From NCBI GenBank assembly GCA_051362555.1, contig CM120642.1:6882001-6946000 (forward strand): a DNA stretch of 64,000 nt, given 5' to 3'. The notes beneath the pieces are model-generated. The model had not been told where the DNA came from, searched no databases, and worked only from the letters and a program-made list of their open reading frames with translations. How positions within the stretch are numbered: position 1 is the stretch's first letter; every line of letters starts with the position of its first letter. A program made the translations under genes and the position numbers. Source of the stretch: Lingula anatina. Taxonomy: Eukaryota > Animalia > Brachiopoda. Of the stretch, positions 28,486-61,277 are shown piece by piece.

Positions 28486-28703
28486 ATTCATCACTTTACC
28501 AAGGGGATAAAGACGACAGTTCCCTGGGTCAGTAGCAACAAGAAGAAGGCAATCACTGAACCAGAGGACAAACTATCTGCGCCATGGAAATATAGTGAAG
28601 GACTCTGTGCTTAATGAACTGATGTCACATTATGAGGAGAGGGTAGACGCTGCGCTTGGATGCACAGAATGAGCAAAGACAAGTCTGCGACACACAAAGG
28701 AAA
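28486..28703 (+). other. Probable 5'UTR part of the LRR gene coding exon
   Basis: Pyrimidine tract and AG acceptor (ttactttgcttattatttccag|) at 28485; in-frame TAG at 28644-28646 lies upstream of ATG 28704. Confidence 0.55.
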
Positions 28704-31067
28704 ATGCCGACAACAACAGCAACAAAGCGGTTCGGGAAAATTTCTCTTTGGGTTTTTATTCACATATTGGTAGGCTGGGTTACTCAGTCTTCGACGACGT
28801 GTCCAACAAACTGCATGTGTGAAAAACGTGACACAGTTGTCAGATGTGTGAATTTACAGCTCTCCTCTATTCCGACATTGCCAACTTCGGTGCAGCGGCT
28901 GTACCTGTCAGGAAACAAGCTCCAGGTCATCCAGAACAACTCGTTTCAGAACTTAAATCAGCTGAAGTATCTGGAGCTAGAGAACAGCCAGCTGAGGAAG
29001 CTGGAGCCCAATGCTTTTAAAGGTCTGGATAACCTTCAAGTGCTCAAACTGGGACATAACAGATTGACATCGCTTCCGAGAGATTTATTTGACCCGACAC
29101 GTCTTCTTTTACACTTGGACCTCAGTTTTAACTCCTTTAGTGCAGTACCCAATGACTGCATGCACTACTTGACAAAACTCAAAGTGCTCAATGTCAGTTA
29201 TAATGAGATCACCAATCCTACCCTTGGCCCCACATTTCAGTTCACAAAACGGCTCCAGATTTTGGATTTTACTGGAAACCGCATGGAGAGACTGGATGGG
29301 AGTGTATTTCAAACCATGCTGTGGTGGGAATCCATTCCCAAGTACCTGAATCTGTCAAACTGTAATATTAAGTACATCCATGCTGACACTTTCGAGAAGC
29401 TCTACTACCTGGTGGATTTCAACTTGTCTGGAAATACTGGGATTCCCACCCCAGTCCTGCGGGATGCTCTCAAACAAATGGAAGCAGCAAGTCTGAAGAG
29501 ACTGACATTGTCATATATGAATATCTCTGCCCCGTCAGAAATCTTCAGCACCCTGCAGCTGACAGGGCTGGAGTATTTAGATCTATCCCATAATGATATC
29601 AGCTCCCTGGGCTTGAGGGGGTTCAGTTATTTGAACCACTTAAGTCAACTGGACCTCAGCTACAATCTCATTAGTGAAGTTGGCGACATGACAGGACTAT
29701 CAGATTTGAGGAAGCTGTCACTGGCACACAATCTCATCAGCAATTTGGATGATACTGTCTTTGAAAAGCTCCAAGCTTTGACAGATTTGGATCTTTCCTA
29801 TAACATGCTCCGAGAGATAACTGATGGTCCTTTCGAAGAGCTTTGGGAGTTAAAGTCTCTGGATGTCACTCGGAACTACATCCAGCGCTTTGAGATAAGT
29901 TCGTCCTTGGAGAGCCTGGAGGCCCTCAATCTGAGTGGAAATAGTCTTACAGACTTGGGCTCAATTCCCCTATTGTCTCGGCTCAATTTATTGGATGTCA
30001 GTCATAACAGGCTTCAGGCTCTCAGAGCTGATCTCTTTTCTCGGTCTAACAATTTAAAAAGTGTGAACTTCAGCAGTAATATTATTACAGAGGTATCTGC
30101 AAATACATTTACATCTCATGCACCAGATATCATCGATTTGTCCAGCAACAAAATTACTCGTTTGGAGAACTATGGCTGGACACACAAAGAAATCCACGCA
30201 TTGATGCTGAAAAACAATGGCATTCGAAGCATCTCAAATGATGCATTTGCTGGGCTGCGTTGGCTGAAGGTGTTAGACCTCAGCAAGAATTCACTCCAAG
30301 ATATCCACCCGGAGGTGTTCAAGGACCTCCAAAACTTAGAGAACTTAATTTTGAGTGATAATAACCTTGGTGGTATGCTCCAGTCGGCCAGCCAAGCATA
30401 CCTTTTCAATTATCTCCGCAGCCTCAAGACTCTTTACCTTGACGCCAATAACATTCTAGTGCTCAACAACAACTTGTTCAAAAATATCACATCTCTTTCC
30501 AGCTTGGATCTTAGTCAAAACTCTATGCAAAATATATCAGAAACTTTGCTTGAAAATTTACATTCCCTAAAATATTTAAATCTTTCTTGTAATAATTTCC
30601 GGACATTTCCTGTAGCAACTTTCAAAGAATTATCTTCACTAGAGGAGCTTGACATATCTCATAATACTTTTGCATGCAGTTGCAATTTGCTTGAACTCCG
30701 CAGCTGGATGGAAACTACAGGTGTTTCTGTAGCTTCTTTAGGCAAAATGGACGCCCATGTATGTAGTTCTCCGCCTGAGTGGAAGGGACGACCGGTGATG
30801 TATTACCGTCCATCTCCAGATATGTGTAGTGAAGTATTCAATACAATGATCATTTACATTATTGTAGCAGCCGTGTCAGTTCTCATAATCCTTGTTATCA
30901 TCATCGCGTGCGTGTGTCACAGAAAACGACGATCGCGACGACGGAACTGTCATCATCACAATCAGTATGGTATTGTTAGGGGCAGTGACAATACTGGACT
31001 GCAAGAGCCTATGAAGCCCCTCCAACAACAACAGAATGGCAAGAAAGATGGCAATGTGTGGTTATGA
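28704..31067 (+). CDS. Leucine-rich-repeat type-I transmembrane protein (TLR-like ectodomain, no TIR), 787 aa
   Basis: The ORF-track start (28656) is TTG; the first in-frame ATG is 28704. Hydrophobic signal-like N-terminus, LRRNT (CPTNCMC...VRC), ~25 LxxLxLxxN repeats, LRRCT (NTFACSC...W...C..P..WKG...C), TM (MIIYIIVAAVSVLIILVIIIACVC), basic stop-transfer RKRRSRRR, ~50-aa tail ending VWL. No introns in the CDS. Confidence 0.93.
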   Translation: MPTTTATKRFGKISLWVFIHILVGWVTQSSTTCPTNCMCEKRDTVVRCVNLQLSSIPTLPTSVQRLYLSGNKLQVIQNNSFQNLNQLKYLELENSQLRKLEPNAFKGLDNLQVLKLGHNRLTSLPRDLFDPTRLLLHLDLSFNSFSAVPNDCMHYLTKLKVLNVSYNEITNPTLGPTFQFTKRLQILDFTGNRMERLDGSVFQTMLWWESIPKYLNLSNCNIKYIHADTFEKLYYLVDFNLSGNTGIPTPVLRDALKQMEAASLKRLTLSYMNISAPSEIFSTLQLTGLEYLDLSHNDISSLGLRGFSYLNHLSQLDLSYNLISEVGDMTGLSDLRKLSLAHNLISNLDDTVFEKLQALTDLDLSYNMLREITDGPFEELWELKSLDVTRNYIQRFEISSSLESLEALNLSGNSLTDLGSIPLLSRLNLLDVSHNRLQALRADLFSRSNNLKSVNFSSNIITEVSANTFTSHAPDIIDLSSNKITRLENYGWTHKEIHALMLKNNGIRSISNDAFAGLRWLKVLDLSKNSLQDIHPEVFKDLQNLENLILSDNNLGGMLQSASQAYLFNYLRSLKTLYLDANNILVLNNNLFKNITSLSSLDLSQNSMQNISETLLENLHSLKYLNLSCNNFRTFPVATFKELSSLEELDISHNTFACSCNLLELRSWMETTGVSVASLGKMDAHVCSSPPEWKGRPVMYYRPSPDMCSEVFNTMIIYIIVAAVSVLIILVIIIACVCHRKRRSRRRNCHHHNQYGIVRGSDNTGLQEPMKPLQQQQNGKKDGNVWL

Positions 31068-38334: not shown

Positions 38335-38501
38335 TCATGTGCCGTCATCAGTCACTTTAATATGATAATAATTTTGTTCTTCCGCAGAAATTCTTGCTGG
38401 AGCATCACTCATGATGTCTCTTCCTACAGAAGTCTTGGGAAAAGCGATCACATCACGAATACTGTTGGCCTGACATGCAATTGCAACCAGTCTGTCCAAA
38501 C
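38335..38501 (-). CDS. DARS2: Mitochondrial aspartyl-tRNA synthetase, last coding exon
   Basis: ctctacag| then (G)LDRLVAIACQANSIRDVIAFPKTSVGRDIMSDAPARISAEEQNYYHIKVTDDGT-TGA: motif 3 GLDR and IRDVIAFPK of bacterial-type AspRS. Confidence 0.95.
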
Positions 38502-38789
38502 CTGTAGAGACAGTAATTAATTATACACTGAGGAAGATTTAAATGAGATCACTGTTCTATGTTCAAAAGATACAAATTGCTCTAAGTGAATTGTTCAACT
38601 AATGTAAATTTCTTACAAAAAGTTAATAAATGAATTAATATTAAGTAAAATATTTAAAACATTAATACAAAATATGAATCAACCCTCTGACCGATTCATT
38701 TCAATGTTATATAAATACAAAAAAATCAGGACTGGAAAATGTTTTCCTGTTGTCATACTACCATTGCCTCATTGTACTATACCTATGCG

Positions 38790-39796
38790 TAAACACCCTG
38801 AATAACAAGACTACCTAAAGTTATACCCCCCCCCTCCATGTGGTAGATGTTCTGGGTAACAAGCTTACCTAGTGCTACACCCCCATGTGGTGGATACCCA
38901 GAGTTACAAGCTTACCTAGTGCTATACTTCCATGTGTTAGACGCCCTGAGTAACAAGACTACCTAGTGCTATATCTCCATGAGGTGGACACCCTGAGTAA
39001 CAAGTTTACGTAGTGCTATACCCCCATGTGGTGGACACCCTGAATAACAAACTTACCTAGTGCTACACCTCCATGTGGTGGACACCCTGAGTAACAAGCT
39101 TACCTAGTGCTATACCCCCTGTGGTGGACACCCTGAGTAACAAGTTTACCTAGTGCTATACCCCCATGTGGTGGACACCCTGAGTAACAAGTTTACCTAG
39201 TGCTACACCCCCATGTGGTGGACACCCTGAGTAACAAGTTTACCTAGTGCTACACCTCCATGTGGTGGGCATCCCGAGTAACAAGCTTACCTAGTGCTAC
39301 ACCCCCATGTGGTGGACACCCTGAGTAACAAGTTTACCTAGTGCTACACTTCCATATGGTGGGCATCCTGAGTAACAAGCTTACCTAGTGCTACACCCTC
39401 ATGTGGTGGAGACCCTGAGTAACAAGCTTACCTAGTGCTACACCCTCATGTGGTGGACACCCTGAGTAACAAGTTTACCTAGTGCTACACCCTCATGTGG
39501 TGTACACCCTGAGTAACAAGCTTACCTAGTGCTACACCTCCATGTGGTGGGCATCCTCAGTAACAAGCTTACCTAGTGCTACACCCTCATGTGGTGGACA
39601 CCCTGAGTAACAAGTTTACCTAGTGCTATACCCCCATGAGGTTGACACCCTGAATAACAAGCTTACCTAGTGCTATACCCCCATGTGGTGTACACCCTGA
39701 GTAACAAACTTACCTAGTGCTATACCCCCATGTGGTGGACACCCTGAATAACAAGCTTACCTAGTGCTATACCTCCATGTGGTGGGCATCCTGAGT
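38790..39796 (-). repeat. 47-bp minisatellite, ~21 copies, derived from a DARS2 exon end plus splice donor
   Basis: Plus-strand unit gacaccctgagtaacaag(c/t)ttacctagtgcta(c/t)acccccatgtggtg. tacctag-type cores recur at ~47-bp spacing from 38812 to 39758; the last unit overlaps exon 39761-39836. Confidence 0.97.
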
Positions 39797-39836
39797 CTAA
39801 TGCCTGAAGTAAGTGATTAAGCTGGCTGGAATCCTC
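39761..39836 (-). CDS. DARS2: DARS2 exon (76 bp)
   Basis: cattgcag| [25 protein letters not shown](G) |gtaagc; reading phase joins both neighbours. Confidence 0.95.
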
Positions 39837-40088: not shown

Positions 40089-40199
40089 CTTCAAGATTTC
40101 TTCTAGTACATATCTTTGCATTTGGGAATTATGAATTCTTATGGACCCTCCTCCAATCTCAGTCCCATTTAGCACCAGGTCATAATGCTGACCTTGGAC
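40089..40199 (-). CDS. DARS2: DARS2 exon (111 bp)
   Basis: gatttcag| [37 protein letters not shown] |gtaatc; AspRS signature [18 protein letters not shown]. Confidence 0.97.
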
Positions 40200-40438
40200 C
40201 TGAAATCAACAAGAGAGCACATGTCCTGGGCTCTGGGGTCCGGTAGGGGAGCATAAATTTATGAATTTATTCAGAATTTAAAATATAAGACTTTATACAT
40301 TCTGCAGAAAAAAAGCTTCTGTCTGAGCAAATACAGACCTTAAACATTCTCAAGAAGACACTTGAGAAAACCATTTTGTCACATCTCTGAAAATCAACCA
40401 ACACAATGTCGCCCCTAACGCAATGACAAGTACTATAC

Positions 40439-40518
40439 CTTCTCTGGGTGAGTATATAACAGTTCTTCCTGCCCAGGCTGAGGGGCTGTGAATGGATGGT
40501 GAGCAGATTCCAGACCCT
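40439..40518 (-). CDS. DARS2: DARS2 exon (80 bp)
   Basis: atatttcag| (E)GLESAHHPFTAPQPGQEELLYTHPEK |gtatag; AspRS HHPFT motif. Confidence 0.95.
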
Positions 40519-41839
40519 CTGAAATATTAGAAATATTGATATTAACTGTACTATATATAATGCTTACACTGTGGATATGGAATACAAACTTGTACATGAT
40601 GTCTCTCTCTCTTATGTGCTGAACCATAGTAAAAGGAACCTACATAAGTATCATATGTATCACTGAGTGTTCAATAAATTACTAATATTGTCATTTCTAA
40701 GATGTCACCAAAACTTATGCAATAGCATACATAATATACCTCTTACAAATACTGCCTTAAGCAGAGTGAAGTTGGCAAGTTCATTTGTAAAAAGGCACAA
40801 CTTTTTTCTTTTTTTAAAAAATCTAATGTACAGGGTCAGATATAGCATTTTGTAGCTACTACTTATTTAATAAAATCATGATTGCAATATTACTTATTGT
40901 TTGTGTGTGTGTGCATGCATGTGTGCATGTGTGTATAAGTGCAAGTGTATTTTGTTACAGGGTTAAGAACATAGTTGAGACTACTAATAGAAAAAAATCA
41001 TACAATTTCCAGAATACCCCAGGTAAGCGAGTTAATAGTTTCATCAAACATCAGCCAATCATTAATTAACTCTCATCATGATCATCTCTTTTTTTCTTTT
41101 TTTCCGACTATTAAATCATGCTTTTGTCTGTTTGATATATGGAGAGCAAAGAATTTCACAGACAGGTCATCCAGGCTCAGTGCATCTTCATAAAAATCTC
41201 AACTCAAGGGATCTTGCCGTTATTGATGCTGTTTTATTTATTATGGCACAATCAATCAAAAATGGAAGATGAAACAAGGTTCAAAATTCCAATCCATGAA
41301 CTCTCGAACTCCACCATCTCCCCCAAGGAAAAAAGCTTGAACATACCGTAAATCATCAAACCAGTAAATAGGTCATTAATTTGCCTCGATCCATTGACTA
41401 ATTCCTTTTTGATGACAAATTGATGAGCCTTTATGATCAATAAGCCATTTTGATGCGACTTGTGGGACTCTTTCAATCACATATATGTTCACTCACATCT
41501 TGGTTTAATAGATGCTTACCATACACAACATTTAGTTTATTAATTCTGCAGAAAAAGAAGTGGTCTCCAAGGACATTTCAAAAATGCTTTGAGCTCAGCT
41601 CGCAACTAAATTTATGATCGAATGGAAGAAAAGTGATAGGTATGTATGTTTTATAAGTAGTAAATAGATAATTCTGGTAAATAAAGAATTTACGATATGC
41701 AAATTACTGCTAAAAATATTTATTTGTTGTTAATCTCAATTGCAACTATTTAATAACAATATTACAGACAAGAACAAAATTAAGCTTTCATGCAATTTAT
41801 ATTCATAATATAAATAGCTACTAATAATCTACAATTGCT

Positions 41840-41841
<2 letters not shown>

Positions 41842-41875
<34 letters not shown>
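41842..41875. repeat. (GA)n microsatellite
   Basis: Directly visible; intronic in DARS2. Confidence 0.9.
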
Positions 41876-41878
<3 letters not shown>

Positions 41879-44800
41879 TTTAATTAGAGGTTTTGATTGA
41901 AATAATCTTAGAATAAATTTTATCACTTTTCATGAGAAGACAAGGAATAAAATCCTCCAAATTGGAGTCTGAAATCTTGCCAGGCAAATTTCAATTCAAA
42001 GCATCTTTCTAGTTAACTCTGACTGCCTCCTGGAAGTCCAACTAAGCAGTTTAAAGTCCACCCCCCCCCCTTACTTGCTACAGTAGGCAACTGTAACTGC
42101 TGTCATCACTACTAATAACAGCGTTTTAACTAAAAGACATTCTAAAACCCGGACAAACTTGAATGTTAAACAAATAGAAATCAAGGATGGTTTTAATTCA
42201 CAAATAATTATTTCTATTATTTATATTTTTCCCGTTGCTGAATGAAACCAGCTTTATTCTCTGATCATGAACATGAAGCCTACTGTACATGTATAAAATG
42301 TCTTGAACATGTTTTGTAGATCACCTAGGCTTGGCTCCAAGTCTTTCTATTTTCATCAAGACATACAGAACAGTTTATGTGACTGGATAAGGAAGGACAG
42401 GGAGGCTACAAGTTATTTTGTCATATCTAATTCATTTAGTTCCTTACATTGCTGTGTTCCCAAAGTTCTTTGGCTAAACAATGACTGCTGAAATTGGTTA
42501 CACTGTAGCAAACTATGTACAGTCAACAGTGCTATACAGGTATTAGAGCTTTTAAAATTGATTGGTCTACAGTCAATTTATTTGACATACCTAAATGGGC
42601 TACTGTCACCATTGAGAGTAAAAACTTTTGTCAAGATGGTTAGAATTTCCTCAAGGAGTTTATTTAAAATATTTCCAAAAATGAGGTTAACTGAACAGAG
42701 CTACAATGGTTTGTCAATACTGCATTAGCAGTAATGGCACGGTAGTGATGTTGGGCATTTCTGTTGTATTGAAAAAATCATACTCCCAACTTTTTCAAAG
42801 ATCAATCTTCAAATAACATTGAAAATACTCAGGCATATGATAACCCAATCATCATTAAAACCAATTCTCAATTTTTTTTCAAACTGACACAACAATTTTG
42901 ACATAGCATGACATGACATGAAACAGCAGATCATGACACTGCATGACAAAATTAACAAAAAAAGGAACATGCTATAACATAAAGTTACTGTATTATAAAA
43001 ACATAACTGTGAAAGAAATGTGTACATTGTAAGAAGCATAGGTACCTCAAATATATGTATGTTTAATTTTACTGTAATGCCTCAAGAGATGGTGCTATAT
43101 ATAATTATTATAAAATGGGATATGGAAACAATCCATTACATTGTCTGGATAAAATCCTGTACTGTTTGGATTAACACTAATCATAATTAAAATTATGATA
43201 TAATCTGGCTTTCTTTAATCTGACACAAATCAATAAGAGGCCTACAGTCTAAATACTTTTATAGACAAAACAGTTTTGAGAGAGAGAGAGAGAGAGACTG
43301 CATGCTCACTAGCCAACTTCATTGTGTAACCAAATCACACACCATTTCAATTTATTTGTGATAATCCTGCTTACGCCTGTGCTTCGTAACACACATAAGT
43401 TACAAAGAAGCCGACATAATGACTTTTCAGGCAACTTCTGTGCCTTCTGTACTACCCACACATTTTCATAAAAGTAACAAAATGAAGACATCCATTCACC
43501 ACACCCACCTCTCTGTTATCGCCTATCAAAAAAAAAAAGCAATAACATTACGGAGATATTATTAGATGTCTAAATTGACTTCTACTTGAAAATTCTAGAA
43601 GACTGTCATCAATTCGGTGACATTATGAGATCTTTAAATTGAACCCTACTTGAGAAATCAAGAGGTGTGTTATTACTTTGGGGGCAGCAAATCAAGGGAT
43701 GATGAGCTCTGGTCAGCCAATCAGTCGTCCTAAAATGAGCATCAGGATTATATGGGAATAATCACTTTGATTTCATTTTCAAGGAAATTTAAACCAGAGT
43801 AATTATTTATTATCCATTTTTCTTTTAAATTTGTGGTTCCTATTTTACATTTAACATTAACATCTTACAATACAGTATCTAAAAGAGTATTTTTGATCTT
43901 TTTTTTTTTAGTGAGAACAATACCAAAATGTGGTCAAAGTGTTCTGTACTATAACTGTGTATTTTGCTAATAATAAATTCTAAGGAGGGTAGAAATTAAG
44001 TAGAATACATATTTTGAGCCAGTTAACCATGGTTAACATCATATTATGATATTCTCCTGAAATACATTCTACAGTAGGATCCTGCCCCTTCCCCCCCGCC
44101 CCCCCCCCCCCCTCCACAACAAAGAGGGAGGGGGAAAAGCAAAGGTGTAATGTCTCTATATCCCTTATAGTGACAGGCTCGATGTTCTTGACAAGGCCTG
44201 ATTATGAGCCCAGATAAACCTTATTTTCCACCCGCTATTCCCACAACCCCCGCTGATCTCAGTTTTCTTTCTCTTCCTTCCATCCATTGTCGTCTGTGTA
44301 TCAGAAAGCCTAGAAGCCTGGAAGGTGCACGGATCTGTTGTTTGCAATCAAAAATCTACGAGCAGAAGATGAGCGTATTGAGGAAGTCTGCGGGAGGCCT
44401 AATAGGTTCATTTGTTGGACAGGTAATGAGATAGCATAAGTGCTGCAATGTATACCTCTCTTAATATGAGGTGGTCTGAACGTCAACCACGTCACCGCTA
44501 TCAAACTGAGATTTTAATTTATCACGCTGACAAGCACATGTTAATATATAACCACTAACCACTAATTCTTAAGAACTACCAAAGAGTTTGATTAACTTAT
44601 TGCAATCGCCTTACTAAAATTTAAATTAAACATCTCTTAACAGGAATCAGGGCTTACGTTTGTTCAATTGTACTAACTTTTGGTTCTAAATTTAATCTAT
44701 TATGCTAAAATGACCTTGTATGCTAGTAAATTGAAAGGAGATTCATCCAAGGTTAAAATTGAACCACTGGGGGCTCTAAATTATACCACTGTGCTTTTTA

Positions 44801-45259
44801 CTCCTGCCTCCCGCTGGGAGTGGTGTACATGTAACAATGCTTGAGGATGGTGAAGAAAGGAGAAAGATATCATCATCTTGACTTCAATAACATCTAAATA
44901 ATGCCTTTTTTTTGTTTTAAATATGAACAGGTTATGTCACTTCAAATAAAAAAAAAAAATCAATTAGTATCTCCGATCTAGCAAAGTACATAATTTATAC
45001 CATTCATAGACACAAAAGTGGCTAATTTTTGGTGAAGATGATTTATACCTAACAATTTGAATTCAAATACATTTTATTTCTTAAAAATGAAAAAAAGTAC
45101 TACTTTAAGCAATTTGTCACCACAGCAAAGAGAGATGGGATATAGTCATTATGTAATCTATATTGCCTCTGCCAGAGAGGGTGTGTTTTTGTCTTTGTTG
45201 ATTTTATTAATTAACAACCTACATGTAAAGAATCAAAGAAAAAGAAGGGGGTTGCTTAC

Positions 45260-45346
45260 CTGTGCCATCTTCTTTTGGCAGGAACAATGGAAAGTCATAT
45301 ACCCACAAGAAATTAAGGGCACTCGGATCTTGAAGCTTTCTTCTCT
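45260..45346 (-). CDS. DARS2: DARS2 exon (87 bp)
   Basis: gtttttag| (E)RRKLQDPSALNFLWVYDFPLFLPKEDGT |gtaagc; FLWVxDFPLF motif; phase 1 at both ends. Confidence 0.93.
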
Positions 45347-47163
45347 CTAAAAACAAACAAATGTACCCCATAAGTAATATCACAACTAAAAGCTAACTGG
45401 AATATGTATAATTAGCTAGTATCGTAAACTTAAAGTAAGCAGTAAAACTGACAGACATTTAAGGGTGTTTTATCAACTTCTACGAAATACATCAACCTTA
45501 AAAAACAGAAATGATTCAATTACTGATATTTAAGAGAGTCACCTAGACAGAACCCATAAGCTTGACATGGCCAATTTTGATTGGCCCAAACACATGGAAG
45601 CTAACTCGAGAAAGGGAGCAAAAAACCCATAGTTTAATTACGTGTAGGACCACCCTATGTGTTTCAAATATAATAGATAAGTGTAACACACAACGTGGAA
45701 AGGGCCTCTGTCAGGGTAAAAGATCTGTCTCAGACCATATAGCAAAACTCTAGCTCTGCGCTGACACAATTACTGCTAAAAGAATCCCCCTTAAGTTAAA
45801 GGTATTTTCAGGGAGAAGGGGGCTGTTTTATTAACCTCCCACTTCTCCAATACATAAACTTTCCTTGTACCTAATAATAACAAAGAATTCACCTCAAAAT
45901 ATCACCTTTTTGGAAAGATTAAACACTTTCTAATATCACATATTTATAAAAGCAAACAGACGTTAGCTGCCTATTTACATATTCATTAAGGAAAAAAATG
46001 GGCATTTTATTATTAAAGTGCAATCTAGCTTGTTGACATTCTGACAATTCTCATGACATTATCCACTTTTCCTACGTCCGGTACAATGGTCAAGGGTTAA
46101 GTAAACTGATTGGTGATGTTGTCCAGCAAAAGCAGACCAATACAATAAATCCTAATGCAATATTTCTCAGTGCAATGGGCGGGACAACAACAAACGGAAG
46201 TGCCAAAAACAACTTTTTGTTCCCCCAGAGTTGTTGTTCTTGCACTCCCAATGGTTCCCTATCACATCCCACCTCTGACCCCTCCTCTATTGGTCAGTTT
46301 GAAATGTGTACGCTACATTTGTCACAGTTATGATAAAATGTAAACTTTCGGGTAGGTGCTAAAATTCTCAATCTAGGACTACTTAGGAAGTACATTATAA
46401 ACTGTGTTAACTTAGCTAAATTGGCAAATGTGTGTTTATCAAGTGCCCAAGGTGTATTAGTCTATTGAAATCTGATGATGGCTATCATACACTAAATATG
46501 AATTGATAACTGAACCAAACGGAATATAGGACACTTCCAATTTGATTAAGGGTACTTCATGACTGTTTTTTTTTTAACCCAAAACTTTTTTTAATTGAAA
46601 GATCATTATGTGACCTTCCAAAAGACCTTTCTTAATAAGCACAGAATTTGACAACCAATTCCTTCCTGTGCTCAAATGATGTGACATAATTTCCAAGCAT
46701 TATATCTGTTAATACTTAATATATACTTTTTAATATATGTGTGATATACTAAAAAACTGAGAAAGAAAATGCAATGTGAACTCAAACACACCGGACCATG
46801 TAATAATATCCTTTTGGCAGGAAATAACATTTAAATTCTGATCAAAGCAAACTGGTTTCAGTTCCATCTGGAATCAAACTGTGAATACGCCTCAACAAGA
46901 ACGCTGGAACTGGAGACATTCTACAACGTTAATCCAAGGAAAATAATTCTGCCTGAACATTAGCTTACGACACGTGAACAATAGAAAACCTATTATAAAG
47001 CAAGGATGAAGCACATCATGGGCTCTTAACCCTCTCCATTAACTTAAACGCGACTGAATGAGAACTAATGGATAATAGTGAATAATTCCCCCTCCTTCAA
47101 TACAAGTGGGTTTTTACGCCGAAGGATGTGTTGACATAGTTATTTGATCGTGTTATACAATAC

Positions 47164-47218
47164 CTTCTTCGTCAAAACTGTTTGTGCTCTCTAGTCTGAC
47201 TCTTCCAAGGAGCGCGCA
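47164..47218 (-). CDS. DARS2: DARS2 exon (55 bp)
   Basis: ttttcttttcttag| CALLGRVRLESTNSFDEE |gtattg; matches the LGxLRL segment after the GAD domain; phase consistent. Confidence 0.85.
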
Positions 47219-49519
47219 CTAAGAAAAGAAAAGAAAATAATTGTATTTTATAGCTGCTATTAAGAGGGTTATAAATATGAAATGGAATATAGGATCGCCT
47301 GTGGCATCCCAACACTGGGGCTTTTTTCTCAGTGTAGAAACAAACCACTGCGAGTGTGTCTCTCAATGCAACGAGGGCGATCCATTACAATTAGGTTAGT
47401 CAACCATGAACAATACCACACGGTCTCTTCAACATTTGTGCATTAGCTTGGCATGTGAGGTTGCGAAAACACACACATTGTAGGTAAGCGAAAGTCTGAT
47501 TTTCAGATTACACACACGCTATGTTGATAATGAGTGCGCAAAGACGGTAAACCGTGACACATGCGATTACATCACAAGTTTTGAACATTTATTGTGATTC
47601 TGATTATATAAGCAACGGGAAGCCATCTTTCAGAAATGGCTGAATGATACAGATGGGAAACCTGTTGCTGTCAAATTCGTGTATGCCTATGTGAGGATTC
47701 ATGTTTGTGACATCTACACAGATGGATGAAGGTTTGAATATGAAGCATTGATCAAAATGTCAAAATAAGCTTTATTCTATCTATGGGTTAAATCAATATG
47801 TTGCTTAGTTGCATGAATCAAACCAACACCCTCTCCAAAATCTGACATATATCAGCAATCTTTCAGACACATAATTTACTTTTAATTAAGAAAATAAGCA
47901 TGGTTCCTTCAATATTATATGGCAGTATAGTTTGGAAATGAGAAAAAAATGTTAGTAACATATACACCACAAGCTATTTTCCTAAAAGTTTAAGTGCAAT
48001 GCAAACAACAGTTCTAAAGTAGTGAAATAGAACCGTGACTCCATTAACTTATTCCTTTCTTTTATGTCAAAGTCAGCTGGTACAGTATTTGTCATGTGTA
48101 TCAAAAGTTTACGTAACTTGTGTGCACAAGGAAAAATATAGCCTGCTTTTTGTCACAGCACTCAGACATAATAGAAGTGCTTGGAACTGATAGGGCTTCT
48201 GGACTGAGTATCATTCAATGAAATCTTTTTCTGCTTTGACAACAGATTGAATGGTTTGAGACTAAACAGAGAAATGTGTGACCATTCGATATGTCTGTTA
48301 ATATTTACATATATAATTGATAGGCTGTACTGGTGCATAAATATTTCCATAGTTGTAGGGCCATGCAAGGAGTTGCTTTCTTGTTTCATGTCAATTATAG
48401 AATATAACTGGAAATGTTTCTTTTATTTCTGAATCAGCAGTTTTGTACCAAAATAGCTGCATTCTTGTTCACTAAAAAATGCAGATGGTAAAGAGAGAAA
48501 TAAAAGAAAATTTATGTTTAGCAAAGAATAAGTAAAAAGGGTACACTGCATTACTTGAAATGAAATTGATGAACTTTTAACCTAATGTCATCATCCAAAA
48601 ATTAATAGAATTATTACATGAGAGAAACAAAGTTGTAGATATCTTCTTACTGTTAACTAAAATTCTAATGAAAGATTACTCGAGTTCATTCAGTCTTCTA
48701 ACTCGTGCAAAAGCAGCCACAAATATCCTTGGGAATAACTGAAATCAATTATTAATGATAAGAAAACACGAGTGAGTAGCTTGCAGGTTATCGAGTACGG
48801 GGGCAATACGCTGGAGGGAACACGGAACAGTTACAGCATATTGCAGCACGGGGTTCTAATACATCACCTGGGCACACAAAACTATTATTACTAATATTAT
48901 TTTATGCGGTGCTAATTGTTGGTCCTGTGTGCGTGAACTGCATTGCTTAATCCGTCCGAATGAACACACAAAAAGCCAACCAGTTCGCACTGTTGTGAAA
49001 GGCAACCGAATGACCCAACACTAAACTTGCCAATTACAATGGCCCGGTTGGCGGGGACAAAAGCGCAAATGAACTGTTACATTTCCCGATCAATATGCTG
49101 ATTTCATGAATGAAAAATCAAAGGAAATGACTGAGGATAAGCCTGCAAATACCCTGCATAAGCATCTCAAGGCCAGAATTACCAAAATACACATTGAAAC
49201 GGAGAAAGGGGGAGTCTGAATTTTTCGTCCTATAGCTGGAAAAATATTAGTTCACTTGGTACAGTGTAAGTAAGCAAAAGCTGACCAAGGTCAACTTCTT
49301 GACCACGTCCGGAGGCTTATACCAAAGGCATTTTTAAAAGAATACATAAGCCAGGTAAGGAAATGCACAGACATCTGTAGCTGTTTATTCAGTATACACG
49401 TTTCTTTAGGAGTAATGGTATGGGATAGGAAAATATTTCAGATTTTTAAAGTCTGTGGAGGTATTTGTTGGTGCTAAATGTTAATATGTTAGACAGAAGA
49501 TTAACTTATTTTATCCAAT

Positions 49520-49522
<3 letters not shown>

Positions 49523-49605
<83 letters not shown>
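49523..49605. repeat. (AG)n microsatellite, ~41 units
   Basis: Directly visible; intronic in DARS2. Confidence 0.95.
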
Positions 49606-49609
<4 letters not shown>

Positions 49610-49832
49610 GGAGGGGAGGAGAGAAGAGGTGCATCCATTTACATATGTAAAGCAGCCGTATCAATAACAGGCAGACAGATGCATAGACACACACATACAG
49701 AGAGGCAAAAAGAAACAATCATATATCATTCTAAAAGGAAACTTAAATGACTTAAACGAAGAAAGCACCATCACACAAGTTTTCACTGGCCAACACCAAT
49801 TACTTTACTCTGTCAAAAAAAAGTCAATTTAC

Positions 49833-49985
49833 CGTTGCATAAGTCTCCCCAGCAGACAAGAAGACCAAATCCCCAGGCTCCATACCAAGATGAGTGATCA
49901 ACCTGGACCTGGTGTCTGTGCTGAGAAACTTGGCCATACTTCCTTGGAGAGAGAGATCTTCTTTCATTTTAATGGGGATCAAATT
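49833..49985 (-). CDS. DARS2: DARS2 exon (153 bp, GAD insertion domain); most 5' exon recognised
   Basis: ttaattgcag| NLIPIKMKEDLSLQGSMAKFLSTDTRSRLITHLGMEPGDLVFLSAGETYAT |gtaaat; GDLxFxxAG motif; phase 0-0. Upstream exons were not recognised in the window. Confidence 0.85.
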
Positions 49986-50964
49986 CTGCAATTAAAAGAA
50001 GTAATGTAATTAAGGAGTGTCCAGTAGAGGTATTCTAATTAAGTAAACTAAAATACTTATTTAATTAAAGCCCATCAGGGAAATGACTTTGTTATTAAAA
50101 CTCTGATATTGCTAATTAAAATGTATCTGGAAAAACAACAATGCTTGCTCATGAGAAAACTTTTCTCAGACTTGATGTTTCTATTTACAGTATTTGGCTC
50201 TTAATGATTCTTTTTCCAAAACCTGGTGCAGCAAAATTAAGAGCTAACACAATTTTGTATTGATACTCTAGGGTAATTTCCTCTGGCATAATTTGTTTTT
50301 GTTGATAAACAATGTTCTCTGACTTACCAAAATCTAATCTGAATAAATAAATAATAGTGTGTAGTGTCAGGCAATCTCTTTACAGTTACAAACACTGCTC
50401 AGGTTAAGAAAATGCAAACATATACACCCTGGCACCCTGATCATTATACTTTTAAATATTTTAATGTGGTAATCAATAAAAAAAACTCAATGTTTTATTT
50501 GGTTTGAAAAAAAATGTTCCTTTGCCTTTGAGATCTAAAGCATAATATCCTCCCACCTGCCCTAATGAACTAATCACCTTGCTTAACAATCTACAAGTCA
50601 CTTTCCAAGTCAATCCCCAATCAACCTGTTTTAAGCAATTACCTAGATTGTATTATTACAGTGATTACGAGCAGGGAGACTTAAACTGTTCAGCCAGGGG
50701 GCAAACCCCTTAATTGTTAACGCTGGAGGAATCCATTAGACTTAATCATGGGTTGCCGCATATGTAATGTAGTAAGGATAAGCCTCTGTCGGTTCCTTGC
50801 ATAAGCGTAAGTAATGTTACGTTATTAGATTGCTAGATCATGACTGACAGGGAATTATGACACATTGTAAATTAATGACAGTCAATACTTAGTGACCTGG
50901 TATGCTGCAGCTGGAGGCAGTGGTGGTCCTGGGGGCGGGGGGAAGGGTAACAGAAAGTGTCTAT

Positions 50965-51511
50965 GAGCGCATTCTCAACGAATTTTAAGCCAGGCTTTAC
51001 AAAGCCGGTGACCTAAAAATGGCGGACGTACATGAAAGAAAAACCGCCTAATCTTTTAATAGTCTCTCCGCCTCCCCACACGTCGTCCCTGCGGGGTACA
51101 GTAATTAAATCGCGTCTCCGTTCGCCATGCGGAAGCTACCTGAGAAATATTAAGTGCGCATGCTCATCAGTTAAACTCGTGGTGAAGAAAGCATGGCGGC
51201 TGAAGGCGATCGAAGGAAAAAAGCTCTTCTGTTCTATTATCTTTGAAAACAGAGACGAAGAGGAATAATTTGGCCCGTAGAGCAGCAATGAATCGACTAT
51301 CTACGGAGATAATATCACCAGAGATATTCACGGAAATATTAATGTTCGGAGCCGAGATTTAATTACTGTACCCCGCAGGGACGACGTGTGGGGAGGCGTG
51401 TGAGAGGCGGAGAGACTATTAAAAGATTAGGCGGTTTTTCTTTCATGTACGTCAGCCATTTTTAGGTCACCGGCTTTGTAAAGCCTGGCTTAATTCGTTG
51501 AGAATGCGCTC
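50965..51511. mobile_element. 547-bp non-autonomous DNA transposon (MITE) with ~155-bp TIRs and 3-bp TSD (TAT), PIF/Harbinger-like
   Basis: TAT|gagcgcattctcaacgaatt ... aattcgttgagaatgcgctc|TAT. Arms 50965-51120 and 51347-51511 are near-perfect reverse complements; CpG-rich. The superfamily is inferred from the 3-bp TSD and GAGC terminus. Confidence 0.88.
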
Positions 51512-54500
51512 TATGAAACAAAACATATGAGCAAGCCCTATGTAGCAAATATTGCTACTGAGAGAGAGGAGCATCATAATCATTATTGGAGTGCTCCCTT
51601 TTCCATCTCTAAAAACAGTATAACATGCAAAATGAGACGAAAAACTGAGCATTTTTTAAAATCTGTTGCCCTGCATATCACAGCAGTATGGACCCTGTAT
51701 GCCACTGTTTATATTTTCATCCTTGCCCTCCTTCTTTCCCTTTGCAGCAATATCCTGGATCCACCAATGAACTCGGAAGTGTAAAATACAATTTTTTAAA
51801 TCTATTTTTGCTAGGTCAATATCTTTTCTGTGGCGAAAAAAAAAAAAATCATGCAGCCTCGAAGGCACAAACAGACTCAATACAGTCAATTAGTTTACTT
51901 GACAGCTTAGTGTCCCAGCAGATGAGCCTTTGTCCATTACAATTAACCTATGAAGATCCGTGCAAATTGCATTGTTCTCCATGAAGTCATTCTCACCTCT
52001 GGGAATTGGAGAGAGATGACCAATAGGGTTTTACTGTCTGTAAAATGCATGCTCATCTCCGTCGCTAGAGTGATTTAAAGGGTTCAACTGAGTGCGATCC
52101 AGCACTGGTATTCTCTGGCGCAGGTGGTTTCATGTGACTTTAGGATAAAGTTGATGATGATTTACGATGAATCAAGTCAAGTCCATGGCATTTGACAAAG
52201 CACTCTGCTTTTGATTGACTGCCTGTCTGCCTTTCTGTCAAACATCCATTTCTATTAAAAATAAAAATTTCATGAAAATAACATCCATATTTCTTTTAAA
52301 ACTGTACTGATGGTTTTGTTCAAATCTCATCTGGACTTTTTCACAACCACTGAGATTTGGAATAAACCCATAACAGTATTCTAAAATGTATGGACCTAAT
52401 CTTCATGTTTACAGATCCAATGAAACTGTTTTCTAATGTGCATGTCTGTTACCTTACAGTCACAAAGTTAACCCAATATCGTTATTTAGATTTAAATCAC
52501 ATTCACTCTCTAGTTCTTGTGGTTTGATTACAGTTCGAATTTACCTCGCTTGACCTTGACTTATATTTACAACCATTCACATTGCAAATTGAATTATATG
52601 ATATTTAAAATGATTACCGAAGGACAAATAAGAAAATTATCCATATACATTCTTTTAAATCTCCTACTTTTATTTTGTACATTTACTGTTTATTTAATGA
52701 ATCCCACTTTTTTGTGTATGTATTTATACTGATTATGTAAAATATCCTTAAAATCCTTTGTATTTACTTTACTGTAGCATATAGAGCACCTGAATGTGGA
52801 CACATTTACTGATTACTTAAATGATCATTATTATGATTTATAACAGGTGGAGCAACATGACTTTATATGTATATAATAGATTTAAGTGTTTTGTCAACTG
52901 AGCAACACTTAAAATAAACAATCTTTTCCCTAGACCCATGAAAAAAAAAAAGAAAACTATCAAATGCCATCCATTAGGCTACATTTTAAGACTTCCATAC
53001 ACTTAGGGTATTTTGCTTTCCTTTGGGATATCACCGTCTATGGAGAAAAAAGCATTAAAATCTTTAACAACCATGTAGTTCAGAGGCTTAATATGGTCAT
53101 GTTCTCCGTGAAAAAGTTCTCATCAGTTGCCTTTATTATTCTTCTGAGACTTATGTTGTGACTGCCCACACAGTATTTTCTACTGGACAAAAAAGAATTA
53201 TTGGATCCATGTCTCCAAAAAATCTTTCTGCATCAAAATTTACTTATAAAATATATTTCTCAAGAACAAGTACAGTAATAGGCAAATCATGTTACTACGA
53301 AATAAGATACATTTGTTGGAAAAAATAATTCACCAACGTTTGCAGAAAGGAAATGTTCCTGCCACAGTGCTTGATTTGAACATCAAAAAACATCATCAGC
53401 GTAGGCATATAAAAACAAATCAATTCTCCAAGGTTATGCGACTGGTGTGTACAGTATAGATAGCAGTTCCATGGGTAGAACAATGGCTGCAATCACTGGT
53501 GGTCACAGCTGCCATCTCCCCTGCACGCTGCACACACACGCTTGATCTGTCGTGATTCTCAGTCGCAATCTGGCTCTTTTGAGAAGAAATAATGAAGCTA
53601 ATCCCAATGTTTCCTGTGCTAAAATTACCTCATTTCCTTCCACTAAGATACGGTTTTAACTGCAATCATGCTTGAAATGTATTAGCTCCTGAACAATCCA
53701 TCCAGCCCCCAAGGGAACACAACGCAAATACAAAAGAGGTTTCTTTTAATGAAAAAAAAAATCTAAAAAAAATCTAGCTTTTAGTGCATTGCTTCTTTCA
53801 GCAGTTAATCATTCCTTATCTATCTTCAAATCATTTCCCCAATCAATTTGCAATCATAAATCCGACGATGAGTTGACATTTTTATTCAATAAAATTGATA
53901 ACAACAACAAAACCTGCTGACCTTACAGAGGTTGAAATGAGGCCATTTTGCATTCGAACCAACTCAGACTGGAAATAAATTAATTAACATCAATAGTCCA
54001 TAATGTAAAATGGGGACCCCTTTCTAATCTGATAATCTTAATGATGTCATTAAGCCAACATCTGATCAAAGTTAGTCACAATGTGAACACGGCTTGAGAG
54101 TAAACAAGGACCATACTTCAAATGGTCTAATATTAGGGCTTAGGGTTACACATAACCTAGAAATGTTTGTGACACTTTGTCTTTATACAGACAGAAAATC
54201 TAAAATATTTTATTAAGATGGTAGCTACTTAAACAGCTAGTTTTAACACTAACTGATTTTGTCCATTCAATGTATGACCTCTGTGCTATGCAGCTGAAGC
54301 TTTAACGCAATCTAGAATTATACAAAGGTACCTTGAAACAACCTTGCTTGTCCTGCATGATGCATTTATAATTTATTGATTAAAATCAGGCAATGTATCA
54401 ATTAATCGACAAATCAGCCAAAGACATTCTATAATGTCAACTATTACAACTTTCTATTGGTAACTGAAGGCAAATATACATGGTATAATGAAATATATTT

Positions 54501-57500
54501 TGATGGCAAATTTATAATTTATGGCAGTCCTTTTCTCAGGTCAACTTTCACATAATGTCAACTGATAATCAGAAATCTTCTTTGACATCAAATCAAAGAA
54601 CTAGCTTTAAAAATAAATCTTACTCCTCAGTTCGCATCTTTTGACCAAACCCAATAAGACAGCGATGAGGGTCTCTGCCTTTGAAACTGTTGAATAAGTG
54701 AAGGTCTAAACTTGGCTTATGGCTCAAGTTAAAATATTAATGTAAGTGCACTTCATAAGAGGAGCAGCAACCCAATATTGATTTTGTCAGCAGAAACGCC
54801 AGCAAAATTTAGCATGCTTGGCTGCAATGACAAATGCATGTCAAGCGAAAGGCACACTGGACATGCGCTGCCACCTTGTGACACCTTAAAGGTATCTGCC
54901 CAACACTACGGCGCATGAACTGCACAAACAGGGCACGAAAGATCTGTCAACCAATCAATAGTCCCATGAACCATCACATATTGCAGCAGCTGCGGGGGAA
55001 TTGAATCTGAGAGACCAAAGCAGATTCAGTTGATAGTGTATTAGATCAATACAAATTAACTTAAAGTGAAGAACAAATTCTGCTGTTTTCTTTGCTAGAC
55101 ATCTTCGGGCTGTTTGCAGTCATGGGGAGAAGGGTGCCGTAACGAACAGCACAAACATTATTGTATTGACAAATCAACTTCCTGACGGAAGGATAGAAGA
55201 GAACAGTTTTAGGCAAAGTCGGGACAAGTCGAAAAGGTGATGAGGAAAATGACTGTGATTTTCTCCCTGCAGTTATTATTTTAAGTTTCTACTCTGAAGG
55301 CCTGAGGTGAGAAAATAACAAATGCAGCTATTGATCAACCTATACAAACTGGGTGATGGAAATGATGTGTTTCTAGATTGAGGAAATGATACAATATCAG
55401 TTCTATTGTTGTTGTTTTTTGTCCCTTTCAGATTCAGAAGAATAAGTGTAGGCTACTGCTTCCACATCTCTGCACAGGAAATCAGGACTAAAGGTATGCA
55501 TTTTTTTCTCTGTCTGCAACAATAACAAATCTAATTTAAATAAATCTGAATCAATCATAATTGAAACATGTAGTTACTCTGCAGTGGCAAAGATAATGAT
55601 GCACAGCTGCAAAACAATATAGTTTTATACATAGTTCAGGTACAAAAAAAAATACATGATATTATGTAAAGCATTATGATTAATTTTTTATAATTTGATA
55701 CACTGTTTGGTGTCATAAAAGACTTTCTCCTTCAAAATAATGGCGTGTGTGTGTGCGTGTGCGTGTGAGTATGTGAGCATGTGTGTATGAGTGCATGTTT
55801 GTGCTTATATTGGTGCATGTGTGATTGTCTTGCCATTTGATTCAAACATCACATTTTTACCCTCTCCCCATTATTTCCAACCAACATACAGAACAACATA
55901 CATAAGTTCAACCAATGGTGCACATTTTCTCACGATGCAAATCAATGTTTTTTCCTCGCGGGCACTATGCTAACTGTACAAGATGGCCAATTTGTAACAA
56001 GTGGTTCATGTACACGTCTCCCTGAAGAAATGAGCATTTCATGATCACAATGGTTTTCTTAATATATCTGCAATGATTAATCCAAACCTATTACATCTTT
56101 AGCTTTTTTTCATATGAACTACACCAAGGCTGTTCACCTAGAAATAAGTCCAACTGCTTTTATAAGGATGGTGGAATCTAGAAGAAATCCTATAATACAT
56201 TGGAATATGAAATGAGAAATAATCTGGCAATTCCCCAAATAGCTAACGTTAAATTGTATTACTGTTTAGTAATCTACTTTCCTATTCATTATTGATAGAT
56301 TCCTCTGAGAAGTTTTATATCTGCCATCTTAGAACTGTATCCATCAAAATTATTCTACATCTGACCATAATCCAAGAACCTGCATACTGATAATTGCCTC
56401 CTCCAATGAAACACAAAATTTTCCTTCCCACTGGTTGGTTGGTTGGTTTGGTAGCGAACAGGATAATTCACAAATTAATATGAAATTCTGATGTGAAGAT
56501 ATTTGAGAGGAGGGGTGGAGTGCTTGTAGTTGGAACTAAAACTGGGTCACTTTCTTTTTGAAGAGATATATTATTCTTATTATTCACAATTTGCCTTAGC
56601 AGAGACCTATCTGCACCCTCAAACTGATCTGATATTTGATAATGTGTTTGTTCTATACAATATGTTTGATGGAAAGAGCACTTATTACAAAACCTGTTAA
56701 GTCAAACTAATGGAAATTGATGTAAAAAATATTTCCAATAAAAACCCATCTTTTAAGCTTCTATGTTTCTTCAATTTCTATAAATACACTAAAATGCACA
56801 AACAGCAGCAGCACCAAGTCAACAGAAAGCAGGAAACTGTAAGTTTGTAATACTTCATCATGATGAACAGTTAAATAAAAAGGGCTCAAAATTAAATATA
56901 TTTCTGAAAACAATGCTTCATAAGTAATGCCTACAAAGGCGAAACATGAATTTTTGAGAATCAAGTCAATATCAGAAACTAGATTTTTGTGAACAGGACA
57001 AATACATAAATCTTTATGTGAAAAAAAAAGATACCCAAATAAGAGACGTACTTGAAAATTATGAGTAATTACCATAAACATAAAGCTAGTTATCAACACC
57101 ATCTTGGAGAGATTAATCAGAGAAAAGATAGTTAAGATCGACCTATTGATTCGCAAACAGTCAAAGTGCCACAACTTATCTGGTTGAATGACAAGTTAAA
57201 TCAGAAGCCATTTTTGTTCAGCTTATTTTGTGATTTCCCCCAGGCATTTGACAAGAGTGGCATTTCTTTATAATCATTATCTTAGCTGAGGACCCGTCTC
57301 CCAAAGGAAACAGATAAGACACCCAGAAATCACCCCCAATCTTCGTTTAACCAAATTCTCTGCAGAAAAAAAAGTGAGTGCTTCAGAAAGTAATCAAGAC
57401 CTGGTTTTGGCTTTCAGGGTCTCAAGAGATTTTTTCCAACTATATGAATAAATAATGAGCTTGATCTTTTTACCTGTTCACTTATATTAACAGATATGTT

Positions 57501-60500
57501 TGTATTAAACAATGATTTCATTCTGTACATATTATCGCCTATATAATTAAGCATAGTAAAGGTGGATTTATACTCAAACTGAGCTGATGTATCTTTGTTT
57601 GACCTATCGTAGCAGACTGAGGCCCTTTTCACATCAAGCAGTAGCTTTCAGAGTGGCACCTCTTTGCAAGATTGGATGACTTGGCATTTGACAAGTGCCA
57701 ATCAAAAGTCAACCTGCAATCTGGTACCTTTTTTATGCGACTGGTCAATGTAAGTAATCTCCACAGTTTGATTCAATTTTTCATCTACAATTCCCTGAAC
57801 TTGATGCATTTTCCCCACAAAAAATGACAGCACTTATTCAGGTATCGGGCAATCAATATTTTTCCACAGTTCTAGGTGGTACTTGATACAACAAGTCAGG
57901 AACTTTATGAAAAATATTTCCTTAGCTTGGAAGAATGTGAGAAAGGCTGAAGGATAGTGAAAGTCTAAAAGATACTTAATCAGTAAAGTACAGTAAAAAT
58001 GCAAATGTTTTACTGACTTACATTAAACTAATACCCAAATATGGAAGCTCTTTCTAGGTAAAAGAGTTCACCCATCAAGGTGAATCTTTGAGTGATTTCC
58101 ACATTAATAAAAAAAAAACATACAAAACTGTGGCTCATTATTTCTAATAAAACCAAATCTGATGAAATATACATAAGTTAGTCATTCTCAGTTTCATATG
58201 ATTAATCAAACGTTTGTACGGGAGCAGGAAAAACTGCCCATAAGTTAACTTCTGACTACTAAATGTGTGCACACACACATGATATGTAAATGTATTTGTG
58301 GGTGACAAGTGTCAATATGTGTGTATATGTGCACACCCTGTTTACTTGCAATGCCAAATATCAAAACTGTCTGTGATATACCTTGTCCCAGTCATCTATA
58401 CTATTTATCAAAGCAATAAAATGCCCAAGGCCCTTTTGTCTGCCAACAATAAAAGTAACATTTTTTATGTAAAAATATATATTTGCTCATCAAAAATATA
58501 ATAAATATAAGTATTAGTATCAAAAATCAATTTTGATTATCAATATGTGTCCATTAAACAAATTTCGTGTAAAATGTATGGCTTTGTAGGAATGCAAATT
58601 AGATTTTCGTGCAAAATTGAGTGCACAGATTGCTTGCATTCAAGCTCCCCAGAGTACTGGAGATTGTTTGAAAAAAACTCCTCGCAAACACATCGACACA
58701 TGTTCACGCAATCAGGAGTATCACAGTTCGCACTGATGTTAATCGAATCAGGAGTGAAAGTGACACCGGGCCACCTGGTGGGGGGTTTATCAACCACAGC
58801 AGCCATATGTTCATGATTTTTGTTTCCCCGAGTAAAATTCTCATAAACGTCCTTCATCATCAAGAGAATGATGTTATATCTAAATACTCATACGTGACTT
58901 GCATGTGCAACTTACATAATCAAACTGTGTTTTAGATCATAGCATTTTTTTCGACATTGCCGTCTTTGATGTGAAATTAAGTCACTGCCTTTCAATTAAT
59001 ATAGCTAATTATTCTAACGTAACACTTGAAATGAAATGTTCTTTTGATAGAAAAAAAATCCTCAGGCAAATATATTGGCACATCATTACTTAAGAAACAT
59101 ATGGCATCTACTCAGAAATGATAGAGGGTTGCAATTAAAAAGACTTATTTACTTACTTAGATATCCAGACAACAGCAATTTCAACACTTTGACGACACTT
59201 TTGAAATGAACTAATCATTACATCATTATATTTTCTGAGATTTAAGTCCTATCAAATCCAGGTATTTTTCCATCAGTATTTTCCTCTCCATCTGTTTGCA
59301 GCATTTGCCCTTTGATATCACTATTTCCGTTTGTATTGTTGGTCCTAACAATTCTTAATAATCAGCCAAAAGACCTTGTTATTTTAAATATCTGTTACCT
59401 TCACAGAACTATTTACTTCTAGCAAACCCTACACATTTTCATAATGCAAATCATGTTCAATTCAACGTTTTTCATTTTGATTTCCTTTCACTGAAATTAG
59501 CTATTGATTTATATTTAATTAAACTAATTTGACAAAAAGGTAAAAATATCAGTGATAATGCAATCTTTATAACTGTTATTGAAGTACCCAATGACCCTTT
59601 CCATGGAAGCATTGAATTGTCATAGCTTGCAAGTTATGACCATGGATCATTCTTATATAACAGTGATACTACTCTATCAATCAAATCCACTTTGATTAAG
59701 AAAAAAATAATTGATTTTCCACTGGAGTAAAACTGCCATCAACATCTATCTTTTCTGAACTTAATTTACACAGAATGTTCACTTCATCATTTTTCATCTG
59801 TGAATCCTAAACTTTTTCTTCCTATTGCTTGTAAGAAATGTGTTTGACATGTGCATATAACAGATAACATTTATTGAACGGGCAAACACAATGACAACAC
59901 GCTCAGTGGCATGAACAGCCAATGAGCAGATACTGTTGTTCCTTCCCAAGACGTCTTATAAGAACACAAAGAGAGGAGACAACTTGTCAATTTCTTCTCC
60001 AGACAACAAGGGAGAACATATTACAAAGACAAAGAATTTGTAATACAGGAAGTCTCGAAAAAAAAATAAAGAAAAAAAGCGAACTGGTCCCACTGGGAAC
60101 ACTGAAATCCATTCTACTCCAGAACTAATAAGAATAAAGAACAGCCAGTGATAAGATAGAACTGTCCAACAAGGACCTGAAAGTGTCTGGGGAAAATTAA
60201 ACTTTCCAATTTCCAATCTTAGTATTCAATTAGTCTGCATGTACTGTATCTACAGGACAAATAAACAACGAGGTATCTCGGCCAGAAGACAAATCAATCT
60301 TGTCTGTTCAAAAATAGGGTGAATTATCTTAGTTTCAATACAAATCTTGATTGCAGCTTACCATGTTTAAAATGTTCATAATGCACCAAATATGACCCTC
60401 TATCATTTCCTTCCTTCTTCATTCCGATTTCGCAAATACACCTTGGATAATTTCAAGTAGATAAGAACAATCTTAAATTGTGCTAGTAGAGAAAAGTTTC

Positions 60501-61241: not shown

Positions 61242-61277
61242 CCCCCCCCCCCCCCCCACACACACACACACACACAC
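61242..61277. repeat. poly-C followed by (CA)n
   Basis: Directly visible. Confidence 0.9.

Follow-up and report, generated by a model that had tools for sequence, protein, structure and literature searches.

A 47-bp minisatellite repeating an exon end and its 5' splice site in the mitochondrial aspartyl-tRNA synthetase gene (DARS2) of the brachiopod Lingula anatina

Tandem repeats that carry an exon/intron boundary within their unit were named mirages in amphioxus, and the accessible parts of the two reports describe splicing as undisturbed by them (PMC3087553, PMC3902484). The genes given there are Adh3, troponin C, the globins BflGb6 and BflGb9, and PGBD5, while the accessible excerpt of PMC10078293 contains nothing on mirage-type repeats. 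Human genes offer further cases, according to the accessible text of PMC1557585. In F7, the repeated pseudo-sites are functional yet silent, including those with a better match to U1, and mutations demonstrated that the donor is chosen by its position. For F7, LAMIN B2, and PDGF, use is confined to the first donor. Such silence of pseudo-sites is not universal, because the nearest ones are used in the interferon-inducible gene 6-16 and in CBS (PMC1557585), the VNTR of the latter being recorded as c.1444_1467+7(16_21) in the part of PMC2630376 that could be consulted. Here we describe an array of this kind in a window of 64,000 nucleotides of Lingula anatina DNA, the whole stretch that was analyzed, and compare it with these systems.

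The host gene and the anatomy of the array

Residues 207–448 of the Lingula anatina protein P0001, named mitochondrial aspartate-tRNA ligase in its source, map onto seven minus-strand exons of the window (Table 1), and the last exon matches P0001 with 98% over 54 residues. The best solved relative of P0001 is the human mitochondrial AspRS 4AH6 (E 2e-163), and Pfam finds the class II D/K/N catalytic domain PF00152 (E 1.6e-99) together with the GAD insert PF02938. Judged by these matches, the gene is that of mitochondrial aspartyl-tRNA synthetase (DARS2). The start of P0001 corresponds to residue 154 in the human chain, and the protein is without the anticodon-binding domain. Neither the 14 kb beyond the exon at 49985 (50006–64000) nor the rest of the window yielded an exon for its residues 1–206, which places the 5' part of the gene outside the window or past a very long intron. 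P0001 agrees with a splice that joins 39761 to 38501, and the reading frame is intact via the donor at 39761. The 12-residue segment that is encoded by the repeat unit, which we take to be the start of motif 3 of class II aminoacyl-tRNA synthetases, is uninterrupted and without any insertion in both P0001 and human 4AH6.

Table 1. Positions of the array, its donor sites, and the DARS2 exons in the window; a slash within a motif marks the splice junction.
Feature	Position	Strand	Basis
Minisatellite with a 47-bp unit across the exon/intron boundary; 20 junction copies beyond the authentic one	38790..39796	-	Tandem Repeats Finder, junction splitting
Authentic 5' splice site TAG/GTAAGC, cut after 39761; donor of the traceable spliced reads	39755..39763	-	sequence and RNA
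Nearest decoy donor TAG/GTAAGT, cut after 39714	39708..39716	-	sequence
Second TAG/GTAAGT decoy donor, cut after 39057	39051..39059	-	sequence
First in-frame stop (TAG) on exon extension into the array	39720..39722	-	translation
Penultimate coding exon, 76 bp (EDSSQ...PPHGGIAL-G); last 34–36 bases = first repeat unit	39761..39836	-	sequence, protein match, RNA depth, joint 39835/40088
Last coding intron, 1259 bp, GT...AG, phase 1	38502..39760	-	sequence; zero RNA depth 38524–38780 in 4/4 runs
Last coding exon (G-LDRL...DDGT-stop); transcribed 3' UTR beyond, at least to 38150	38335..38501	-	sequence, protein match, RNA
Preceding DARS2 exon, approximate start; control for exon polymorphism	40089..40202	-	protein match, RNA
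Four further DARS2 exons, approx. 40522–40436, 45347–45261, 47227–47165, 49985–49830	40436..49985	-	protein match

The strongest tandem array of the window according to Tandem Repeats Finder extends from 38852 to 39796, with a period of 47, 20.1 copies, 89% matches, 0% indels, and a score of 1449. When cut at the exon/intron junction, the assembly contains 21 copies, of which the authentic one lies at 39761 and the 20 extra ones extend down to a decayed copy at 38815 at the far end, and the spacing is 47 bp throughout, bar one interval of 46 and one of 54. An earlier, sequence-only reading of the locus had described a minisatellite built from an exon end and its 5' splice site, with about 21 copies and the true exon as the terminal one, and this description is borne out. 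Its estimate that the array fills about three quarters of the 1259-bp last coding intron (38502–39760) agrees with the 72–77% measured here.

Among the 21 junctions, ten read AG/GTAAGC (the authentic one and nine extra ones), six AG/GTAAAC, two AG/GTAAGT, two AG/GTAGTC, and one AC/GTAAAC. The extra copies thus keep GT in 20/20, AG/GT in 19/20, and AG/GTAA in 17/20 cases. Six AG/GTAAAC copies had also been counted before, whereas the 11 extra copies said to keep AG/GTAAG were judged an overcount against the nine extra AG/GTAAGC copies. Two AG/GTAAGT copies exist as claimed, at 39714 and 39057, but the former had been placed at ~39711. The decoy at 39714 indeed matches the consensus better than the authentic donor (8/9 versus 7/9 letters), and extension of the exon into the array gives the read-through peptide that had been predicted, with the stop ending at 39720. 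The full-length units number 19, and 18 of them are distinct, with a mean pairwise identity of 89%; this set excludes the decayed terminal unit and one unit that has lost a single base.

No further copy of the 47-bp unit occurs anywhere else in the window, and no boundary duplications were found at the six other DARS2 exons. The window also holds a second minisatellite at 14631–15127 (69 bp x 7.2, 89% matches) with one open frame per strand (147 and 179 aa), which has no Pfam match and could not be assigned to any exon; a decayed tandem pair of ~130 bp, 73% alike, lies directly before it (14362–14626). On the plus strand, a single open frame of 806 aa (28647–31067) contains numerous leucine-rich repeats (Pfam LRR_8, E 4e-88). 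A signal-like segment and a membrane-spanning one are recognizable in it by eye, and it likely encodes an LRR surface receptor. An inverted repeat at 50965–51511, upstream of the DARS2 exon at 49985 and with arms of ~160 bp that are 90% alike, may be a small DNA transposon.

Donor choice in RNA reads

Of nine raw RNA runs that carry this species label, Lingula anatina, six (X11, X12, X13, X14, X17, and X18) were aligned to the unique stretches flanking the array, so that use of the inner donors was assessed only indirectly. Between 6 and 26% of each run was read, and the counts below are small, with mates that are not independent. The acceptor side was covered by X11, X12, X14, and X17 and the donor side by X11, X13, X17, and X18, so that only X11 and X17 covered both sides.

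On the donor side, loose ends at 39759 led into the last exon in 13 reads of X13 and nine reads of X17. In the boundary bin, the depth of spliced reads was 2.0 in X11, 9.0 in X17, and 4.0 in X18, with no run-on reads in any of the three. The first donor was therefore used in 15/15 reads, for which the lower 95% bound of 0.78 is too optimistic since mates are not independent. In X13, the same bin contained 13.4 spliced reads and 7.6 reads running on, about 21 in all. On the acceptor side, 22 loose-ended reads entered exon-end sequence (X11 3, X12 10, X17 9), and the X12 consensus was identical to the window's own first unit; X14 contributed two reads without a junction call. The intron part from 38524 to 38780 had zero RNA depth in all four acceptor-side runs. 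At this low depth, no read was identified in which the last exon follows a later donor. The junction count that the sequence-only reading had suggested as a check favors the first donor, in all reads of three runs and in 13 of ~21 in X13, but the other seven to eight X13 reads are mostly array-internal. It should be kept in mind that the presence of the array is demonstrated in the X13 sample only, and the X11, X12, X17, and X18 animals may have shorter arrays or none.

Some X11 and X17 junction reads carry array-like letters and were considered as candidates for decoy use. This was rejected, as the same letters occur in reads that cross the unique part of the exon without insertion, which identifies them as exon alleles. 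Structural masking of the decoys was likewise rejected as a discriminator. A small hairpin covers the donor in 4/4 copies that were folded singly, the authentic one included, and among the predicted accessibilities of all 21 donors that of the authentic site does not stand out. Position therefore remains as the likely cue.

In X13, four reads with three start places step back by 47 bases into a unit of the inner type, the junction of which reads GTAAAC, and this unit carries a letter that is absent from the window copies. The tandem structure is present in real molecules of another sample. A change at 39767 was found in 6/21 X13 reads and not in the other three donor-side runs; it would replace Ala by Thr if it were in the exon and is more simply explained as an array copy. 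The array reads are on the sense strand, and at least four of the ~7.6 run-on reads are array-internal. With all units collapsing onto one, the array reads would correspond, under retention of the entire array, to ~5–7% of the transcripts, with a range of ~1–13%. This RNA could be unspliced RNA or could stem from the use of a late donor.

Taken together, the locus shows four of the features by which mirages are described: a unit of minisatellite size in head-to-tail order, the exon/intron boundary inside the unit with the authentic junction as the terminal one, splice signals that are kept, and a main mRNA that is spliced at the authentic site, as seen at low depth. Another mirage feature is copy-number polymorphism between alleles, on which the reads bear only through the unit variants of X13 that are absent from the window. 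We regard the array, with a probability of about 0.8, as a mirage minisatellite that arose from the end of this DARS2 exon together with its donor and that is tolerated, with the first donor being used. A 47-bp duplication across the exon/intron boundary would have given rise to it, and slippage or unequal crossing-over would have expanded it. The first donor is likely chosen by its position, as the most upstream site that works, through exon definition or an oriented scanning process, an explanation that we transfer by analogy from human F7, where it was tested. The view that the spliceosome ignores the extra donors, one of the two options raised from the sequence, fits the RNA reads as well as the behavior of this repeat class as far as the accessible texts describe it (PMC1557585, PMC3087553, PMC3902484).

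A variant of this picture, which we consider rather unlikely without dismissing it, is that the first donor dominates but the array leaks, with a few percent of the transcripts using nearby decoys or retaining the intron. Waste of mRNA, perhaps more of it with longer arrays, would then be an unselected side effect, and human 6-16 and CBS, in which two nearby pseudo-sites are used (PMC1557585, accessible text), provide a precedent. The sense-strand array RNA in the polyA run X13, with its ~7.6 of 21 boundary reads and the four steps back, fits such leakage, with the upstream intron showing no depth in this run. However, equal retention would predict only ~2 reads for that intron, and its zero is no clear contrast. 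Moreover, the four step-back reads enter an inner-type GTAAAC unit and not the exon, and therefore give no evidence that decoy 1 is used, and the 15 boundary reads of X11, X17, and X18 include no run-on read.

The sequence-only reading had also proposed a VNTR splicing rheostat, in which the array length sets the ratio of productive to NMD-destined DARS2 mRNA and the array is retained for that purpose. The read-through stop lies 6, 53, 100, and 147 nt before the junctions of decoys 1–4, and this position so close to the junction of the nearest decoy results from the location of the array in the last coding intron. According to the 50–55 nt rule for EJC-dependent NMD, as given in the accessible part of PMC8339359, and presuming that there is no 3' UTR intron and that the rule is valid in brachiopods, decoy 2 is borderline, whereas decoys 3 onward place the stop at least 100 nt before the last junction, which would suit a rheostat, as would the preserved AG/GTAA of most extra copies and the array RNA in one run (X13). 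However, the strongest and nearest decoy (39714) would yield a product that escapes EJC-dependent NMD, as its stop is only 6 nt before the junction. Being outside the rule, this product should show in ordinary polyA RNA, yet it was absent among the 15 boundary reads of X11, X17, and X18. In addition, the survival of donors requires no selection among copies as similar as these (89%), the array decays toward its far end, and the F7 experiments argue against competition by downstream copies (PMC1557585, in the text available). As none of the spliced reads was assigned to a later donor, the rheostat found no support here, at a depth that was low and with NMD active. We consider it very improbable, and the DARS2 array is likely tolerated rather than regulatory.

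Even less credit can be given to the idea that the array is a reservoir of microexons, with a unit being spliced in as a 30-nt in-frame exon that duplicates the ten residues before the catalytic arginine. Most units (38869–39747) do contain TTAYTCAG/G, a weak CAG/G acceptor 30 nt before the donor with phase 1 on both sides, and a route of this kind was proposed by Ebner et al. for intron gain from mirages (PMC3087553, accessible part). However, a polypyrimidine tract is absent, P0001 is without the ten-residue duplication, and neither a 30-base step-back joint nor such an insertion was listed in 4/4 runs, where listing needs three reads. Finally, an assembly artefact has a practically negligible probability, since the units are nearly all distinct, the X13 reads from another sample show the 47-base tandem step together with a unit variant absent from the window, and two contig sets, one of which may be the window's own source, contain 0.77 and 0.60 of the words of the array-bearing stretch (the array being ~37% of it). 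The number of 21 copies is that of the assembly.

Probable sequence exchange between exon and array

The spliced reads of different samples differ from each other within the 36 exon bases that are repeated, namely at 39795, 39792, 39789, 39786, 39774, and 39765, the last of these resting on the loose-end consensus of three X11 reads. As checked codon by codon, all six differences are silent. Five of these six silent exon letters are found among 18 window copies, although only 7/30 possible silent changes are found there (P 0.0008); with transitions only, P is 0.0013, without the CpG-linked site 0.003, and by site 0.025, where all of these tests were chosen post hoc, contain linked and hence non-independent sites, and combine DNA and RNA that are not from matched animals. 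The letters of the window exon at 39789, 39786, and 39774 are carried jointly by three of the 18 copies, and the copy at 39714 equals the X11-type exon allele at all five shared sites.

Silent diversity also appears to be raised in the repeated bases, with differences at 6 in 10 silent sites compared to 7 in ~33 in the neighboring unique coding sequence (P 0.044); the change at 40098, being non-silent, does not enter this count. This change, from Glu to Asp, was seen in three reads of X18, and the other 12 listed exon differences, with 39767 excluded, are silent. Non-silent letters do occur in the array, at 39770 (Ile to Val) in 11/18 copies and at 39775 (Gly to Glu) in 4/18, and neither is among the differences listed for the exon reads.

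A single founding duplication cannot have put both letters of five sites into the exon pool and into the array without parallel mutation, and exchange after the birth of the array is therefore likely. We regard it as fairly probable that exon and array exchange sequence in some direction, and the excess of exon diversity leans toward the direction from array to exon. Misaligned recombination or gene conversion between the exon unit and the inner units would shift letters both ways, and selection would retain only the silent swaps on the exon side. Going further, the intronic array may be a sequence donor: through misaligned recombination, its letters would time and again replace those of the 36 exon bases that form the first unit, with only silent swaps surviving selection. 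We put this forward tentatively, with somewhat more doubt than confidence. If true, the mirage would be a local mutator and a reservoir for an essential active-site segment and not a passive by-product. No reports of exon–array exchange in mirages, or of the present array, were found in a search that left subscription literature mostly outside.

Significance and relation to known systems

Although mirages are already known as a repeat type, the DARS2 array extends them to a brachiopod, in which an essential gene probably tolerates 20 decoy donors. For the Adh3 mirage of amphioxus, somatic instability has reportedly been observed. If exchange takes place, mirages would feed variation into their parent exons. 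Diversity and codon statistics would then be skewed at exon ends of this kind, and conserved sites would bear a small mutational load. As the nearest decoy matches the consensus better than the authentic donor, the DARS2 locus is a ready non-mammalian test case for the selection of the first donor.

In architecture, the DARS2 array is very close to the 31-bp VNTR in intron 13 of human CBS and to the 6-16 minisatellite, whose units, present in ~15–25 copies, are derived largely from the exon end and include a few bases of the intron, as far as the accessible text of PMC1557585 describes them. The two nearest pseudo-sites are also used in CBS and 6-16, whereas no such use was identified for DARS2 at the low depth available. 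The 37-bp VNTR in intron 7 of human F7 resembles the DARS2 array in that an authentic donor is followed by repeated pseudo-donors (PMC1557585, same text). However, the F7 unit includes four exon bases and is present in 5–9 copies, whereas the DARS2 array includes 34–36 exon bases, has 20 extra copies, and resides in the last coding intron. In F7, mutations served to test the mechanism, which is inferred for DARS2.

The amphioxus mirages, as described in the accessible parts of the reports, share with the DARS2 array the boundary-spanning unit, the terminal position of the authentic junction, a splice signal that is mostly kept, and normal splicing of the mRNA. The DARS2 array differs from them in being in a brachiopod and in a different gene, with a unit that contains 34–36 coding bases of a conserved enzyme motif. 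A further difference concerns homogenization: the boundary units of amphioxus are excluded from it according to the available text of Ebner et al. (PMC3087553), whereas the exon unit of DARS2 shares polymorphic letters with the inner copies.
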